Shown here: one piece after another, positions 26,419 to 41,606 of the stretch | Numbering within the stretch: position 1 is the first letter of the stretch | Layout of the letters: every line of letters starts with the position of its first letter | NCBI RefSeq assembly: GCF_001677475.2 | Contig: NZ_CP015229.1 | Direction: 5' to 3' (one strand) | DNA from: Escherichia coli | GTDB taxonomy: Bacteria; Pseudomonadota; Gammaproteobacteria; Enterobacterales; Enterobacteriaceae | DNA: 64,000 nt | Made by a program: the position numbers and the translations under genes | Notes under the pieces: generated by a model | What the model saw: only the letters and a program-made list of their open reading frames with translations | Told to the model about the DNA's origin: nothing | Databases searched by the model: none

Positions 26419-27104
26419 AGCACCGCCTTTTTCATCGCTGTGTTGTACCACTGACAAATGTGTTCAAGACGCGTAATGGCAGAACCGACCGTCACCGCCC
26501 ACGCGCCGTGGCGCATCGCATCTGCCGCCTGAGCAGGCGTGTTGTAACGCCCTTCGGCAATCACCCGACATCCGGCGTCGCTCAACGTTTTCACCAGCGC
26601 CAGATCCGGCTCTTCTGGCGTTTCAGGCGTGGTATAGCCAGAAAGCGTAGTGCCAATAATTTCGGCTCCCAGCTTTTGGCATGCCAGGCCGTCTTCCGGC
26701 GTTGAGCAGTCGGTCATCGCCAGTAAACCGTGATGGTGAATACGTGCCAGCAACGTTTCAACAGGCACCGGACGCGGGCGGTCGGTGCCGTCAATGGCGA
26801 TAATGTCCGCGCCCGCCTGCGCCAGCGCATCAACATCTTCAATATAGGCCGTGATGCGTACCGGAGAATCCTCCAGATCGCGTTTCACAATTCCAATAAT
26901 CGGCACGCTCACCACCGCACGCGTGGCTTGCAGATTTGCCACACCTTCAATACGAATGGCGACCGCGCCCGCCTGCTCTGCCGCTAATGCCATGGCAGCG
27001 ACGATTTCGGGTTTATCGAGCGGGCTGTCCGGAACCGGCTGGCAGGAGACAATCAGGCCACCGTTAGCAGCGATTTTTTGATCCAGTTGTGCAAGTAACG
27101 ACAT
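26415..27104 (-). CDS. nanE: NanE, N-acetylmannosamine-6-phosphate 2-epimerase
   Basis: ORF track 26415..27146(-) trimmed to [12 protein letters not shown]... (229 aa); 4-bp overlap with the nanK start. Confidence 0.93.
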
Positions 27105-27151
27105 ACATCTTCCCTTAGCGAAAGGCCCGGTACAGAGACCGGGCAACAGGA

Positions 27152-28642
27152 TTAACTTTTGGTTTTGACTAAATCGTTTTTGGCGCTGCCAAACGGCACG
27201 GCACCGCTGAATGGTTTACCGTCGATAGCGTCATGAGTACGCAACGCTTCCGGGCGCAACCAACGCTGAACACGAGAAGGCATATCCAGACCAATCAGCA
27301 GGATCACCACAAATGTCAGACTGAACGAGAGCGATGCCAGCGCCGTCCCCAGATCCAGACGTTGAGCGATCAACGCGCCGATGATTGGGGCCAGTGCGCC
27401 ACCCAATGCGCCAACGTTATAGGTAAAGCCCAGGCCCGCTGCACGCTGGTCGGTATCGAAATAACCGCCAATCAGTTTCGGTAAGATCCCGGCGATCCCT
27501 TGTCCAAGCATTTGCTGGAAGAACAGTAACAGACCGAGCACCCAGACGTTTGCGCCGCCAATCGCAAATACCGGAATAATCAGCAGCTGCGAGGCCAGCA
27601 GGCTACAAACGTACGCTTTGCGGGTTCCCAGCCAGTCACCGAGGAAGCCACCTACGCAGCATCCCACCGCCGCGCCAAAGCCACTAAAGAACAGCACATT
27701 GGCGACAGTATGCGGGTTATAAGCCAGATCGGTTTTCAGATACGTTGGCAGCAGCGCCTGAATCGGCCATGAGTAGAGGAAAGCAAACAACACGACCACC
27801 ATCAGCATTACGCCCGTTGGCCAGCGTTTGCCCGTACTTTGCACCATAAAGCTGATAAAGATTGCGGCGCATAACAGCCCAAGAACAGCGACGATCGCGG
27901 CATTTTGCAGGTTACCGGCGAAGCAAAACCACAGCGCAGTAGCCGCCGCCAGTGTCATTACGATATTGGCAATGCGATGTTCACCCCGGTAGAGAATATC
28001 TACCATCGTGCGTACTGGTGCTTTACCAGCATGTTTCTCTTTCCAGTCTTCCGCTTCCGGGATGTTTTTACGCAGCCAGAGAGCAAAGATGATTGGCAAA
28101 ATGCCGATAAAGAACAGCGCACGCCAGCCCCAGACCGGAACCACCAGGCTATAGACCTGAGCGGCAACGACGGCCCCCACAGAGAAGCCGGAAATCAGAA
28201 AACCACTGGCTTTATTACGCAGATGTTTTGGCCAGCTTTCAATGACATAGGTGGCGCTGGAACCGTATTCACCCGCCATCCCCATGCCGATGACCAGACG
28301 AGCGATAAACATGGTGATGTAGCCTGGCGCAAAGCCGCAGGCCAGCGTCCCGGCCGAGAAGAGAACGATGCTGGTGACCATTGCCAGACGACGCCCGTAG
28401 CGGTCACCCATAGCGCCGAGCATCAGGCCGCCGAACCAGCGAGAGATAAAGGCTGCGGAGATCAGACTTGCCGCCTGCACCGTCGTCAGCCCGAATTCAC
28501 CTTGTACTTCGGTGAGTACCAGGGCGATTAAAACGAAATCAAAACCGTCAAGCAGATATCCCAACCAGGCAGCGGAAAATGCCCGCCATTGTGCACGATT
28601 GAGATGGCGATACCACGGGATATTCTGGGTTGTAGTACTCAT
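27152..28642 (-). CDS. nanT: NanT, sialic acid MFS transporter
   Basis: ORF track 27152..28672(-) trimmed to [12 protein letters not shown]... (496 aa). Confidence 0.94.
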
Positions 28643-28711
28643 TGTGAGTCTCCCGCGGTGGGCGATGCCCACACGCTTTGGTATGAAAATTGTAGGGTAC
28701 AGATGCGTTTA

Positions 28712-28746
28712 TTTCCCCTCACCCGGTAGGGGCGAGCGAGGGGAAA
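28712..28746. repeat. Imperfect palindromic intergenic repeat (ttcccctcaccc...ggggcgagcgagggga), copy 1 (approximate coordinates)
   Basis: Read directly from the nanT-nanA spacer; a closely related copy lies at about 46561. Confidence 0.5.
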
Positions 28747-28750
28747 CAAC

Positions 28751-29644
28751 TCACCCGCGCTGTTGCATCAACTGCTGGGCCAGCGCCTTCAGTTCTGGCA
28801 GATATTTTTCATCTACCGGTCCAAACGGTTTGCGGCACAGCGGCACAGAAACGACATCCATATAATGGAGGACAGTTTTCAGGCCGCGAAATACGCCCGT
28901 TTTGATCAGTAAATCAATGACTTTATTGCACTCAGTTTGCAGTTTCTGCGCGGTCTGGATATCGCCTTCTTTCAGCGCCTTAACAATGCCCTGATAACGC
29001 CAGCCCATGATGTTGTAGGTACTACCGATACCACCATCAGCGCCCGCCAGAAGACCAGAGGCGAAGATTTCGTCGTAACCGTTATAGAGCACCAGATCAG
29101 GATGTTCACGACGGATCTGTTCCATCTGATAGAGATCGCCAGAAGTCTGTTTCAGCGCACCGACGCCAGGCAACGTAACAAGTGTGTTGATCTGATCCAG
29201 GGTCAGTTTTACCCCACTCAGGGCTGGAATGTTGTACACCACCATCGGCAACCCATCCGCTGAATCAATAATTGCCCGATAGTGATCGCAGTGTTCTTCA
29301 AAGCTGAAAGGATAGTAGAACGGCGTAACGGCAGAGACGGCATCGAAGCCATAACGTTTAGCCGATGCCGCAAGTTGTTGGCTTTCAGCAGTGCTGACGC
29401 AACCTACGTGAGCGATGAGTTTAATCTTGCCTTTCGCCTCTTCGGCGACGATTTCCAGTACCTGTTCACGCTCGGAAAGGCTTTGTACAAAGGCTTCGCC
29501 GGTAGAACCACCCACGTATAAACCGTCGATGCCCTGCTGAATATTGAACTGAACCAGGCGACGCAGACTCGCTTTATCCAGTGCTTGTTGTTGATCAAAA
29601 GGAGTCAGGAGTGCGGCCATTACGCCACGTAAATTCGTTGCCAT
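28751..29644 (-). CDS. nanA: NanA, N-acetylneuraminate lyase
   Basis: ORF track 28751..29644(-), 297 aa; DHDPS/NAL family. Confidence 0.95.
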
Positions 29645-29679
29645 AAATACCTCTGAAGTGATGCTTGTCTGATAAACGA

Positions 29680-29702
29680 TATACCTTTATACCTGTTATA
29701 CC
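29680..29702 (-). promoter_or_regulatory. NanR operator: three direct GGTATA repeats in the nanA promoter (approximate coordinates)
   Basis: Plus strand reads tatacctttatacctgttatacc, i.e. GGTATAACAGGTATAAAGGTATA on the nanA coding strand, about 40 to 60 bp upstream of the nanA start; matches the known NanR operator. Confidence 0.75.
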
Positions 29703-29765
29703 AGATCAATTAAGCAACACCCCATACAGAAAGCTTATAATGCGATCTGCTTCACTAAAGTGGCA

Positions 29766-30557
29766 TTATTTCTTTTTGTTGGTGCTCTGACCGAAGGCAT
29801 GCCAGGTAGCAGAGACGCTGTTGAGATGCGATTGCAACGCGCGATCGGCTTCATCGGGATCGTGGCGGCGGATCGCGTCAACGATCGCAATATGCTGTTG
29901 ATAGCTAACGTTGTTATGCTCGTGCAGAGCCTGATCAGCCACGGTTGGACGTGCGGCGATTAGCCAGTCGAGCAGGGCAACGTGGATCGCCATGAAGATT
30001 GGGTTACCTGGGATCTCCGCCAGCACGCGGTGGAAATCAACGTCTGAGCGAATGAATGCCGCGTTGTTATCCAGCGACTGACTGTTGATTTCCAGTGCTT
30101 TTGCCAGCAAATCGATTTGCTCATCGGTGGCGTGTTCAGCCGCATAGCGCACCAGGCTGGATTCAAAGAACAGACGTAATTGTTCGAAATGGGCAATCCC
30201 ACCTGGATGAGAAAGGAAATCTTTCGCCATGCCGGAAAGCTCGCCGATGATGGTGTCCGCAGAAGGTCGAGAGACACGAGCGCGTTCGCCGTTGTTTATT
30301 TGCACCAGACCTTTGCGTTTTAACGCTGCCAGCGCTTCACGCACAGAAGGACGCCCGACGTTAAAGAACGCCATCAGTTCGCGTTCAGACGGTAATTGTT
30401 CACCTTCGCCAAATTCACGACGGCGGATCATCTGTTCCAGCTCTTCTTCCACCATTTCGGAGAGTTTTTTACGCGCCAGCGGGCGGCTGCGCAAGTTGCG
30501 ACCAATTGCAGGTGAAGAATCTTCGGTTTGCGAATCAAATGCGTTCATAAGGCCCAT
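29766..30557 (-). CDS. nanR: NanR, GntR/FadR-family repressor of sialic acid catabolism
   Basis: ORF track 29766..30557(-), 263 aa; N-terminal GntR HTH. Confidence 0.94.
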
Positions 30558-30936
30558 TCTGTAAGGTCAGTGTGATTAACATCATCAGTGACATCCTATC
30601 ACAGGATTGAAAGTAGGGGAAAATGGCAGGGTTTTCTCTTTGTGCCTCATCATTACCATAATTAATGGAATAATTAACTATTGCGGAAAATTAATGTAAC
30701 GCAGATAAAAACATCCCGATTGAATTATTTATAAGACTATTCACGAGCATTATGAATATTATGAATGTGTTCTTACAAAATAATCATAAGCGCATATTTT
30801 TTAATGAAAAATCACCTCACCCACAATTAAAAACACGACATCCGCACCATAAATAGACTTGCAAAAAATATAACATCATTGTTTTCAATCTGCCGTTTAT
30901 GGGATTGACCGTTTTCTTTTGACACGGAGTTCAACA

Positions 30937-32304
30937 ATGTTCGGCATAATTATATCTGTCATCGTATTAATTACGATGGGCTATTTGATCCTGAAAAACT
31001 ACAAACCTCAGGTGGTGCTGGCTGCCGCAGGTATCTTCCTGATGATGTGCGGTGTCTGGTTAGGGTTCGGTGGTGTACTCGATCCCGCCAAAAGCAGCGG
31101 CTACTTGATCGTCGATATTTATAATGAAATCCTGCGTATGCTGTCCAACCGCATTGCCGGATTGGGGCTGTCGATTATGGCGGTGGGCGGTTATGCCCGC
31201 TACATGGAGCGCACAGGAGCCAGTCGCGCGATGGTGAGCTTGTTAAGCCGCCCGTTAAAACTCATTCGCTCGCCGTATATTATTCTGTCGGCAACTTATG
31301 TCATCGGCCAAATCATGGCGCAGTTTATTACCAGCGCCTCCGGTCTGGGTATGTTGCTGATGGTCACCTTATTTCCGACGCTGGTGAGTCTGGGAGTAAG
31401 TCGCCTCTCTGCGGTGGCGGTTATCGCAACCACGATGTCCATTGAGTGGGGGATTCTGGAAACGAACTCCATTTTTGCTGCCCAGGTAGCGGGAATGAAA
31501 ATTGCCACATACTTCTTCCACTACCAGCTTCCGGTCGCCTCTTGCGTCATTATCTCGGTGGCGATCTCCCACTTTTTCGTGCAACGCGCTTTTGACAAAA
31601 AAGATAAAAATATCAATCACGAACTGGCAGAGCAAAAAGCTCTCGATAATGTCCCGCCGCTCTATTACGCCATTTTACCTGTGATGCCATTAATCCTGAT
31701 GCTCGGCTCGCTGTTCCTCGCCCACGTCGGGTTGATGCAGTCAGAACTGCATCTGGTGGTGGTGATGTTACTGAGTTTGACGGTGACGATGTTTGTTGAG
31801 TTCTTCCGCAAGCATAACTTGCGCGAAACAATGGACGATGTGCAGGCGTTTTTTGACGGCATGGGTACGCAGTTTGCCAACGTGGTAACGCTGGTGGTCG
31901 CGGGTGAAATATTTGCGAAAGGCTTAACGACGATTGGCACTGTTGATGCGGTTATCAGGGGTGCGGAGCATTCTGGTCTGGGCGGTATTGGCGTGATGAT
32001 TATTATGGCGCTAGTCATTGCCATTTGTGCCATTGTGATGGGCTCTGGCAATGCGCCGTTTATGTCATTTGCCAGTCTTATTCCGAATATCGCAGCCGGA
32101 CTACATGTACCAGCGGTTGTAATGATTATGCCGATGCATTTTGCCACGACGCTAGCGCGCGCGGTTTCGCCGATTACTGCGGTGGTTGTCGTTACGTCAG
32201 GAATTGCAGGCGTTTCGCCTTTTGCGGTAGTGAAGCGGACAGCGATCCCCATGGCAGTCGGTTTCGTGGTGAATATGATTGCCACTATCACGCTATTTTA
32301 TTAA
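30937..32304 (+). CDS. dcuD: DcuD, C4-dicarboxylate transporter family protein
   Basis: ORF track 30919..32304(+) trimmed to [11 protein letters not shown]... (455 aa), polytopic membrane protein. Confidence 0.92.
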
Positions 32305-32317
32305 GCGATTAAAAAGA

Positions 32318-32343
32318 CAAAACAGGCCGCCAGGGCCTGTTTT
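32318..32343. terminator. Bidirectional rho-independent terminator between convergent dcuD and sspB (approximate coordinates)
   Basis: aaaacaggccgccagggcctgtttt: perfect hairpin flanked by A-run and T-run. Confidence 0.7.
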
Positions 32344-32347
32344 AGTA

Positions 32348-32845
32348 TTACTTCACAACGCGTAATGCTGGTCGACCACCACGTGGTGGCTGCGGTGGTT
32401 CATCGTCAGGATGAGTGTCATCATCGTGATCTGGCTTGTCGCCATCAATAACCGACATAACGGTTTCGTTGTCTGCCGATGCCTCTTCATCATTCATGAT
32501 GCTGGCATCTTCATCGTAGGCAGCTTCAGGTTCAAACATCGTGCCTGCGCCATTTTCACGGGCGTAGATAGCCAGCACGGCAGCCAGCGGCACAGATACC
32601 TGACGCGGAATGCCACCAAAGCGCGCGTTAAAGCGCACCTCATCATTCGCCAGTTCCAGATTGCCGACAGCACGCGGCGCAATGTTGAGTACGATTTGCC
32701 CGTCACGCGCATATTCCATAGGAACCTGCACGCCAGGGAGCGTCACATCCACCACCAGGTGCGGCGTGAGCTGGTTATCCAGCAACCACTCATAGAATGC
32801 ACGCAGCAGATAGGGACGACGTGGTGTTAGCTGTGACAAATCCAT
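32348..32845 (-). CDS. sspB: SspB, ClpXP adaptor (stringent starvation protein B)
   Basis: ORF track 32348..32845(-), 165 aa; acidic C-terminal tail ending RGGRPALRVVK. Confidence 0.94.
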   Translation of the reverse strand: MDLSQLTPRRPYLLRAFYEWLLDNQLTPHLVVDVTLPGVQVPMEYARDGQIVLNIAPRAVGNLELANDEVRFNARFGGIPRQVSVPLAAVLAIYARENGAGTMFEPEAAYDEDASIMNDEEASADNETVMSVIDGDKPDHDDDTHPDDEPPQPPRGGRPALRVVK

Positions 32846-32850
32846 ACAGA

Positions 32851-33489
32851 TTAACTCCGGCCCAGACGCATTTCACGTTCTGCTTCAGTTAAAGAAGCAA
32901 GGAAAGAGTCACGCTCAAAGACGCGGGTCATATAGCCTTTCAGCTCTTTCGCACCCGGGCCGCTGAACTCGATGCCCAGTTGCGGCAGACGCCACAGCAG
33001 CGGAGCAAGGTAGCAATCGACCAGGCTGAACTCATCGCTCAGGAAGTACGGCTTCTGACCGAAGACCGGCGCAATCGCCAGCAGTTCTTCGCGCAGTTGC
33101 TTACGTGCGGCATCTGCTTCAGAAGCTGAACCGTTGATGATGGTGTTCATCAGCGTGTACCAGTCTTTTTCGATGCGATGCATGTACAGACGGCTTTCAC
33201 CGCGAGCTACCGGGTAAACAGGCATCAGTGGCGGATGCGGGAAACGCTCATCCAGATATTCCATAATGATGCGAGATTCCCACAGGGTCAGCTCACGATC
33301 CACCAGGGTCGGAACGCTCTGATTCGGGTTGAGGTCAATCAGATCCTGAGGCGGATTGTCCTTTTCCACGTGTTCGATCTCGAAACTTACACCTTTCTCA
33401 GCCAGCACAATGCGGACCTGATGGCTATAGATGTCAGTAGGACCGGAAAACAGCGTCATTACCGAACGTTTGTTGGCAGCGACAGCCAT
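32851..33489 (-). CDS. sspA: SspA, stringent starvation protein A (GST-like)
   Basis: ORF track 32851..33489(-), 212 aa. Confidence 0.95.
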   Translation of the reverse strand: MAVAANKRSVMTLFSGPTDIYSHQVRIVLAEKGVSFEIEHVEKDNPPQDLIDLNPNQSVPTLVDRELTLWESRIIMEYLDERFPHPPLMPVYPVARGESRLYMHRIEKDWYTLMNTIINGSASEADAARKQLREELLAIAPVFGQKPYFLSDEFSLVDCYLAPLLWRLPQLGIEFSGPGAKELKGYMTRVFERDSFLASLTEAEREMRLGRS

Positions 33490-33824
33490 GAAAACCTCCA
33501 GGTATAGTCAGAATTTTTACTGCTACCAGCCACCAGGTGGCCAGTCAGAAGTTGTGTTACCCAGTAAGGAACGACTCTCTTTGTTCGAAAATCAAACAAA
33601 AAATGAGCAATACCCGACATTTGGGCAGAAAATTGGATGATAGTTTACCAGATTTTGCGACCTTTGTGGTGAGTCGATGCCGGAAATGGGGAAAAAGAGA
33701 TGCGCTTTAGTCTGAAATAGTTGACTTAGTCCCTTATTGGCGATGTGGTTTTTGTTTTACCTGTCTGTCAGACGGCAGCAAAAAGCAACTTTCCATTTTT
33801 TACGCTGATTCAGAATTTAGCCAT

Positions 33825-33851
33825 AAAAAAACCCGCCGAAGCGGGTTTTTT
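33825..33851 (-). terminator. Rho-independent terminator downstream of rpsI (approximate coordinates)
   Basis: aaaaaaacccgccgaagcgggtttttt hairpin with flanking A/T runs, about 30 bp beyond the rpsI stop. Confidence 0.7.
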
Positions 33852-33883
33852 CGCAAATTGTTTTCTGCCGGAGCAGAAGCCAA

Positions 33884-34279
<396 letters not shown>

Positions 34280-41242: not shown

Positions 41243-41606
41243 TCTCTGCCCCGTCGCTTCTGGCGGCGGGGAAAATGTTGCTTATCCCTCTCAACCCCCT
41301 GCTTTCCCCTGCGATTAATTTAACGAATAGTGCGTTTTACTGCGACATGTCATTCACACAATGAATACATACGGTAAAAAAAGCACATTATGCAAAATTC
41401 ATTATCTAATTGAAAATACTAGAATTAAAAATAAATAACCGTGTTTTTAATTCTTTTTTGTTATTAAAATTCACATTTTTAATACTTAGTATCAACTGAA
41501 ACAGTTAGCGTGGTATTAATTAGTTCAATAATTAGTGTATACTTGATTTTGTGATAAGGGTCACGAAACAAAGACCCAGCAAAAAGATTATGTTGAGGTA
41601 AAAATC

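Follow-up and report, generated by a model that had tools for sequence, protein, structure and literature searches.

DcuD belongs to the Escherichia coli transporters whose substrate and inducing condition have yet to be found, and the literature regards its gene as silent, which backs the poor laboratory expression mentioned in a first-pass annotation of this DNA. The question raised by the locus is what the long AT-rich sequence in front of dcuD does, and whether it explains this silence; the first-pass annotation had proposed a promoter silenced by nucleoid proteins. The window, that is, the whole stretch of 64,000 nucleotides (64 kb) that was analysed, is part of an Escherichia coli-type chromosome, its genes running nanT-nanA-nanR, dcuD, sspB-sspA-rpsI. 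A gap of about 380 bp had been described between nanR and dcuD, and its coordinates are exact: since the nanR start codon ends at 30557 and the dcuD ATG lies at 30937, positions 30558-30936 (379 bp) are precisely the divergent spacer between both genes, with nanR on the minus and dcuD on the plus strand. The elements of the locus are the following (GC contents are given as fractions):

29766-30557, minus strand: nanR coding sequence, for a GntR/FadR-type repressor of sialic-acid genes (annotated so in the RefSeq record of the closest genome; NCBIfam NF003011)
30558-30936, no strand assigned: nanR-dcuD divergent intergenic region, 379 bp, GC 0.332
30937-32304, plus strand: dcuD coding sequence, DcuC-family C4-dicarboxylate carrier paralogue of 455 aa, GC 0.507

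The identity of NanR is supported by its match to NCBIfam NF003011 at 408 bits. DcuD is covered by NCBIfam NF007317 over 455 of its 455 residues (1026 bits), and it scores under the cut-off of the true-DcuC model NF007937. The name "dcuC" given to the transporter by the NCBI pipeline was discarded, as position and family point to the dcuD gene of K-12 (b3227). The spacer of K-12 MG1655, calculated to lie at roughly 3,372,514-3,372,892 in U00096.2, is also 379 bp long and 98.4% identical, and the K-12 literature can be applied here because none of the 6 differing positions falls in the conserved boxes described below, which are all identical.

The strong AT-richness reported for the spacer is borne out by its GC content of 0.332 vs. 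0.519 for the 64-kb window. Equally AT-rich 379-bp windows amount to 0.39% of the total, at two loci alone (nanR-dcuD and yhcN), and no other of the 33 intergenic gaps that measure 40 bp or more within the window has so low a GC (median GC 0.45). A/T tracts of at least four bases, also remarked on previously, number 12 in the spacer vs. approximately 3.4 expected per 379 bp (about 3.5-fold), and the A/T-tract string quoted on that occasion is found at about 30661-30700. The TpA frequency is 0.082 vs. 0.043, about 2-fold over the window average, and the densest AT-only runs (at least 8 bp) of the whole 64 kb occupy the stretch 30635-31013, the yhcN region being second. The high AT content over a few hundred bp, the A-tracts and the TpA steps that characterize an H-NS-silenced promoter are all present. 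AT-richness is furthermore retained even where the sequence of the spacer has diverged, as seen when orthologous spacers are compared.

The similar AT-rich block that had been pointed out before yhcN does exist, and it provides a comparison locus:

41243-41606, plus strand: argR-yhcN spacer, 364 bp, GC 0.335
41410-41439, plus strand: published yhcN promoter TTGAAA-18-AATAAC, located in the argR-yhcN spacer

Both spacers resemble each other in length (364 vs. 379 bp), GC (0.335 vs. 0.332) and content of A/T tracts and AT-only runs, and each precedes a gene that is poorly expressed or of the stress type; they differ in that the yhcN spacer is tandem and the nanR-dcuD spacer divergent. The argR-yhcN spacer was scored as H-NS-bound (Higashi, 2016; S3 Table) and, in a second, independent dataset, appears among the spacers bound by the sigma-70 holoenzyme alone, with an overlapping H-NS site (Shimada, 2014), whereas neither H-NS binding nor a polymerase-alone promoter was found published for nanR-dcuD. 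The flanking core genes nanE and sspB were scored as unbound by H-NS (Higashi, 2016; S2), and the nanR-dcuD spacer is missing from the "conserved intergenic regions" of the same work, presumably because one of its strains, SE15, is devoid of dcuD. The published datasets searched yielded no report of H-NS, StpA or Fis occupancy, or of expression in an hns mutant, at the nanR-dcuD spacer, and of 47 papers naming dcuD, 2 also name H-NS, neither of them connecting one with the other. The high-affinity H-NS consensus TCGATAAATT, with up to 2 mismatches, has 1 match in the nanR-dcuD spacer vs. about 1 expected; in the yhcN spacer there are 2 matches vs. about 0.9 expected, so that the bound control is likewise not enriched. 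Judged solely by its composition, the nanR-dcuD spacer makes a very plausible target of H-NS/StpA, since its argR-yhcN look-alike is reported as H-NS-bound.

This divergent control region is composite, being formed by about 70 bp on the nanR side (GC 0.42) and a dcuD module of about 305 bp (GC 0.31). Footprints were sought by comparing the window with Citrobacter, with identity calculated in 10-bp bins, and by aligning 20 Escherichia and Citrobacter spacers; the neutral yardstick was the 4-fold degenerate sites of dcuD, whose 40% identity between the window and Citrobacter corresponds to saturation. Four 10-bp bins reach 84-99% identity against the neutral 0.40 and stand out as footprints: three of them belong to the dcuD core (30778-30787, 30828-30837 and 30868-30877), and the fourth (30598-30607) lies inside a nanR-proximal box, here called box A. 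The mean identity to Citrobacter over the dcuD-proximal 190 bp is about 63%. The parts of the spacer are:

30558-30629, minus strand: segment beside nanR, presumed to hold its promoter and leader; GC about 0.42, moderately conserved
30593-30625, no strand assigned: box A, ATCCTATCACAGGATTGAAAGTAGGGGAAAATG; 78-91% identity to Citrobacter per 10-bp bin
30630-30747, no strand assigned: variable AT-rich spacer part, GC 0.30; identity to Citrobacter 0.06-0.48, at or below the neutral 0.40
30748-30880, plus strand: conserved core, predicted to be regulatory for dcuD; GC 0.28 (0.21-0.32 in 13 taxa)
30749-30766, plus strand: exact 9-bp tandem, two copies of ATTATGAAT; TGAA cores invariant in Escherichia and Citrobacter
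30772-30800, plus strand: CTTACA-17-TATTTT, best conserved sigma-70-like candidate for a dcuD promoter; 8/12 matches
30778-30787, plus strand: box AAATAATCAT, 90% identity, within the spacer of the CTTACA-17-TATTTT candidate
30828-30857, plus strand: block TAAAAACACGACATCCGCACCATAAATAGA, 62-84% identity per 10-bp bin
30864-30877, no strand assigned: box AAAAATATAACATC, 0.99 identity in its bin
30881-30936, plus strand: dcuD leader with Shine-Dalgarno GGAG at 30926-30929; GGAG invariant, 7 nt before the ATG

Box A keeps the pattern ATCCTATCACAGGATTGAAAG..GGG.GAAAATG, contains the palindrome ATCCT-N5-AGGAT and shows on the minus strand the sequence TGaTAGGAT, which resembles an extended -10; a diverged yet recognisable copy of it is present in strains that have no dcuD. 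The variable part keeps its length (about 100-130 bp) and its GC (0.27-0.39) in all orthologous loci, and not its sequence. The core 30748-30880, on the other hand, is both the most AT-rich and the most conserved part of the spacer. Within it, the ATTATGAAT tandem is a candidate factor-binding site; besides this tandem, the internal repeats of the spacer are just short two-copy matches. The 30828-30857 block follows the pattern TAAAAA.A.GA.A....A..CCA.AA, also written TAAAAACACGA...CCATAAA. Positions 30864-30876 are identical in 20 of the 20 Escherichia and Citrobacter spacers, with 30877 deviating in one Citrobacter. On the plus strand, AAAAATATAACATC offers a poor -10 (TATAAC or TAACAT) without a -35 upstream, and on the minus strand it can be read as an extended -10 (TGtTATATT); the box may act as an operator, as a -10 element, or as both.

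The spacer's AT-rich part is present in 4333 of 5426 complete E. coli genomes. In 1040 of the 5426 (~19%) there is no dcuD, and nanR is followed by sspB after 107 bp; these nanR-sspB junctions are nearly all at least 99% identical to one another. What is missing in them is a single unit:

30630-32318, no strand assigned: segment of about 1.69 kb comprising the upstream module and dcuD, absent as a unit in 1040 of 5426 genomes; ends approximate

According to the junction alignment, the dcuD-less genomes retain 30558-30629 next to nanR together with the shared sspB terminator, and since those ~70 bp remain there, the presumed nanR promoter would require the proximal ~70 bp alone. In a collection with one genome per species, dcuD is carried by 16 Citrobacter loci and by three further Escherichia lineages, E. 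whittamii among them. The order nanA-nanR-spacer-dcuD-sspB is found in 15 of the 15 Citrobacter loci with enough flanking DNA (in the sixteenth, L018, the DNA stops within dcuD, and one Escherichia locus breaks off in sspB), and the spacers of 19 orthologous loci measure 356-396 bp, with GC 0.29-0.35. The Citrobacter DcuD protein is 88-90% identical, on par with NanR, NanA and SspB, while silent sites are saturated, which argues for purifying selection on DcuD; the gene itself has a genome-like GC of 0.507 and is not compositionally foreign. The synteny with Citrobacter, along with a divergence equal to that of the neighbour genes, shows that the dcuD module is ancestral and dates from the Escherichia-Citrobacter split or earlier; its highly conserved blocks mark it as selected. 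A foreign islet between nanR and sspB, a reading first suggested by the presence/absence pattern, was rejected on these same two observations, and a later loss is the simplest account of the missing dcuD in ~19% of E. coli genomes. The horizontal acquisition associated with H-NS-silenced promoters is thus not seen here, given the GC of 0.507, the Citrobacter synteny and the neighbour-like divergence.

A simple sigma-70 consensus scan of the spacer gave 2 matches vs. 1.9 expected, both on the minus strand (toward nanR) and 0 on the dcuD strand, and a weight-matrix scan of 20 orthologous spacers did not find a strong dcuD-strand promoter. For the CTTACA-17-TATTTT candidate, 11 of the 20 orthologous spacers have a scoring -10-like hexamer at that point of the alignment. 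Very AT-rich DNA typically shows promoter-like sites on both strands. In the present case, the minus-strand promoter-like sites equal or surpass the plus-strand ones in quality, and for this reason some of the conserved boxes could, judging from the sequence, serve a distal nanR promoter. In genomic SELEX, the 492 spacers bound by the sigma-70 holoenzyme alone do not include nanR-dcuD (Shimada, 2014); this absence, from a listing and not from a direct binding test, fits a factor-dependent dcuD promoter. Neither dcuD nor nanR is named in part of the supplementary files of a genome-wide start-site study (Kim, 2012).

Concerning regulators, no conserved FNR (TTGAT-N4-ATCAA) or CRP (TGTGA-N6-TCACA) site lies upstream of dcuD. 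The best FNR-like palindrome (2 mismatches, 30571-30586) abuts nanR, is Escherichia-specific and is not conserved in Citrobacter. The paralogous genes dcuB and dcuC belong to the same transporter family and share a long AT-rich upstream region, but they are FNR-activated, whereas dcuD has no such site; in the portion considered of the supplementary tables of an FNR ChIP and transcriptome study, dcuB and dcuC appear as FNR-activated and dcuD is absent. The spacer likewise adjoins nanR and the nan operon, but NanR-controlled promoters have operators made of GGTATA repeats, and GGTATA occurs 0 times on either strand of the spacer. Consensus scans for FNR, CRP, ArcA, NarL, IHF and Fur, as well as for ArgR, Lrp, Fis, CpxR, PhoP and NagC, gave weak matches, none of them on a conserved block, and no fit of the conserved boxes to the consensus of a known factor was found in these scans. 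The spacer therefore falls outside the FNR-type and NanR-operator classes, as it lacks the features that define them, and likewise outside the riboswitch and sigma-54 classes considered below.

The explanation to which we grant slightly better than even chances is a weak factor-dependent dcuD promoter, with operator boxes placed on an AT-rich platform that H-NS/StpA probably coat. The ~70 bp adjoining nanR would serve nanR, and the remaining ~305 bp would constitute a private upstream module of dcuD, consisting of the variable AT-rich spacer, the ~130-bp conserved core, where the near-invariant boxes lie, and a short leader whose ribosome-binding site is normal. The core would hold a sigma-70 promoter that is weak in itself, lacks a usable -35 element and would fire only once a specific factor binds the conserved boxes; the laboratory silence of dcuD would then be due to the signal of this activator being missing under laboratory conditions. 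H-NS/StpA would probably occupy the AT-, A-tract- and TpA-rich DNA and add repression as a second layer, also suppressing the many spurious promoter-like sites on both strands, and the AT-rich composition itself may be under selection. In this sense, the nucleoid-protein-silenced promoter of the first-pass annotation survives in part. The spacer does have an H-NS-type composition like that of the H-NS-bound argR-yhcN region, and the silence of dcuD is documented; on the other hand, the rationale based on foreign AT-rich DNA fails (dcuD GC 0.507, Citrobacter synteny), and the footprints in the dcuD-proximal ~190 bp and the absence from the sigma-70-alone list also speak against silencing as the whole story. 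Taken as a whole, these findings point to a specific factor-dependent promoter, to which nucleoid-protein binding would plausibly add a further layer.

Among the competing explanations, pure nucleoid-protein silencing would imply a competent promoter smothered by an H-NS/StpA filament, the removal of H-NS being sufficient for dcuD expression. We consider it rather unlikely, albeit deserving attention, as the spacer matches or surpasses the H-NS-bound argR-yhcN in GC, length, A/T tracts and AT-only runs, dcuD is silent under laboratory conditions, and natural isolates, strain CFSAN061770 among them, carry IS1 insertions in the nanR-dcuD spacer, or replacing it. In bgl and other silent E. coli loci, H-NS silencing is relieved by IS insertions. 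The bgl locus also resembles the present case as an intact conserved gene, silent in the laboratory, with AT-rich DNA upstream and natural IS insertions there, but no evidence was found for activation of dcuD by an IS insertion or an hns mutation. A smothered competent promoter is also at odds with several of the above results: a good dcuD-strand promoter is not visible, the spacer is not in the list of those that polymerase binds unaided, the module is of ancestral, not foreign, origin and dcuD has a normal GC, the literature search for occupancy or an hns-mutant result returned none, and non-specific AT-binding does not require near-invariant boxes of 10-14 bp. At the opposite extreme, a functionless spacer would owe its AT-richness to mutation bias in a long non-coding gap beside a decaying cryptic gene. 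The purifying selection on DcuD, the identity of the core blocks, well over neutral, and the length and GC kept in 20 loci of two genera (with a median spacer GC of 0.45 in the window) make this improbable, even if dcuD mutants have no clear phenotype, the gene is dispensable and absent from ~19% of complete genomes, and IS1 disruptions are found in the spacer.

Control at the RNA or translation level would demand that transcription begin ahead of 30752 and that dcuD be gated by a short conserved upstream frame or by structure in the leader. Position 30752 is, besides that of dcuD, the sole plus-strand start codon (ATG, GTG or TTG) in all 20 spacers; its frame is open for at least 16 codons in each of the 20, and Asn5 and His12 are invariant, both with synonymous codon changes. 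Nonetheless, there is no Shine-Dalgarno before 30752, variation at codon positions 1 and 3 is equally frequent (hand count on the codon alignment), a similar "conserved ORF" arises by chance on the minus strand, and automatic calling annotates the frame sporadically and always as a hypothetical protein; a small protein from 30752 was accordingly rejected, with sporadic calls only and the ribosome-binding site absent. When 29500-32500 was scanned against Rfam, the spacer gave no match at E up to 1, and the dcuD leader shows neither a conserved nor an unusually stable structure (consensus fold -2.1 kcal/mol, 0 compensatory pairs, single-sequence z = -0.18), and we thus deem this type of control very improbable. 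The least credible of all is a sigma-54-dependent dcuD promoter, although dcuD figures in a 2011 list of RegulonDB sigma-54 promoters and was assigned a ChIP-seq site (Bonocora, 2015). The assigned site, TTGGTATGAAAATTGTA (28678-28694), falls in the gap between nanT and nanA, ~2.25 kb upstream, and its orientation is antisense to nanA and nanR; no GG-N10-GC exists on the dcuD strand in 30540-30960, and the best match to TGGCAC-N5-TTGCW in the spacer still has 3 mismatches. A sigma-54 promoter inside the spacer is therefore essentially refuted. A more specific proposal is that the ATTATGAAT tandem, AAATAATCAT, CCATAAA and AAAAATATAACATC are the operators of a dedicated regulator, or else that the frame at 30752 is a translated leader. 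We regard it as decidedly unlikely; if true, the region would be a specific switch, and its signal would reveal the substrate and role of DcuD.

Returning to the weak factor-dependent promoter, the region is probably, by analogy with yhcN and with classic silent loci such as bgl, an ordinary AT-rich conditional promoter, coated by nucleoid proteins and with nothing new in kind. Since the upstream region appears ancient, selected and rich in short invariant boxes, dcuD would be in use somewhere in nature, and the sequence 30748-30880, above all 30864-30877, offers itself as a probe toward the regulator of dcuD. The invariant boxes and a clean natural deletion are modest by-products that leave the understanding of such regions unchanged. 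Roughly one complete E. coli genome in five lacks dcuD together with its control module, which in practice provides a natural knockout for comparison. Recognisable by name among the dcuD-less genomes are Nissle 1917, NU14, O25b:H4 and the type strain ATCC 11775, which we take to be phylogroup B2 strains of extra-intestinal or probiotic character; SE15 is likewise taken as a B2 strain.

The gene dcuD and its upstream module (the approximately 305 bp of the nanR-dcuD spacer that belong to dcuD) are missing as one piece of about 1.69 kb, corresponding to window positions about 30630-32318, from 1040 of the 5426 complete E. coli genomes compared, including Nissle 1917, NU14, O25b:H4 and ATCC 11775. 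The first ~100 bp of nanR in these strains are 86% identical to the window, and what is left of the spacer is only 55% identical, versus 96-100% in the flanks; because of this unusual divergence, the nanR start and the leftover spacer are suggested to represent an old or imported allele. The spacer has also been altered by IS1 in two further strains. Most of the upstream module is replaced in CFSAN061770, leaving about 70 bp between the transposase gene and dcuD, and ET846 has lost the 5' end of dcuD along with the nan genes in an IS1-associated rearrangement.

L002 4159-4265: junction in a dcuD-less strain, corresponding to loss of window about 30630-32318
L038 3543-4322: IS1 in the spacer of strain CFSAN061770
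L003 3288-4001: IS1 in the spacer of strain ET846

Regarding the window itself, identity to its top match in the same collection of 5426 genomes reaches only 98.8% across 7 kb (27000-34000), and its lineage therefore lacks a close representative there; it would be a divergent E. coli, a strain of the Shigella type or a clade near E. coli. Over the 701 bases across the spacer (30400-31100), the top match reaches 99.4%.

Several sequence elements were located within the spacer:

30752-30856, + strand: conserved reading frame, with its start codon at the same aligned position in 20 of 20 spacers
30571-30586: palindrome TGTGATTAACATCATC, 14-29 bp ahead of the start codon of nanR
30577-30585: 9-mer TAACATCAT, copy just upstream of nanR
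30871-30879: 9-mer TAACATCAT, copy that overlaps the invariant box in the dcuD upstream module

The start codon of the conserved frame is ATG, GTG or TTG, and the frame then stays open for at least 16 codons in all 20 Escherichia and Citrobacter spacers, with the consensus M-K/N-x-x-N-M/V-x-x-x-N-N/Y-H-N/K-x-L-F; no Shine-Dalgarno sequence was found for it. The window's own version of the peptide has no database record, and the 34-aa peptide of the close strain E. coli LH50-c, differing from it by one residue, belongs to a six-member cluster made up of sporadic automatic gene calls annotated as "hypothetical protein". The palindrome, found in Escherichia and absent from Citrobacter, shows two mismatches to the CRP consensus and likewise two to that of FNR; nanR has been described as FNR-repressed in one of three transcriptome sets (Myers et al. 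2013). The double occurrence of the 9-mer may be due to chance.

Two sites outside the spacer were also noted:

28678-28694, + strand: perfect match to the sigma-54 motif TTGGTATGAAAATTGTA, in the nanT-nanA intergenic gap
41410-41439: yhcN promoter TTGAAA-18-AATAAC, in the argR-yhcN spacer (41243-41606)

Sigma-54 occupancy at TTGGTATGAAAATTGTA was reported in K-12 and the site attributed to dcuD (Bonocora et al. 2015), which lies 2253 bp downstream, the motif being oriented antisense through nanA and nanR. This site is probably the source of the old RegulonDB entry "sigma-54-dependent dcuD". The first-pass annotation had proposed an AT-rich dcuD promoter silenced by nucleoid proteins such as H-NS; the argR-yhcN spacer is a better-documented case of such an arrangement than the dcuD spacer, with H-NS binding reported by two papers and an exact match to a published "constitutive" promoter.

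Finally, a DcuD homologue is encoded on a contig of 2.8 kb assigned by binning to a Negativicutes genome:

L019 710-2077: DcuD homologue

It shares 75% identity with the window DcuD, versus 42-44% for other Negativicutes homologues, which hints at either a transfer of the carrier between phyla or a mis-binned contig. The contig has a GC content of 0.40 and a Firmicute-style GGAGG ribosome-binding site. Of the two ORFs flanking the homologue, one looks by eye like an amidohydrolase and the other, of 118 aa, like a small HxlR-type regulator.
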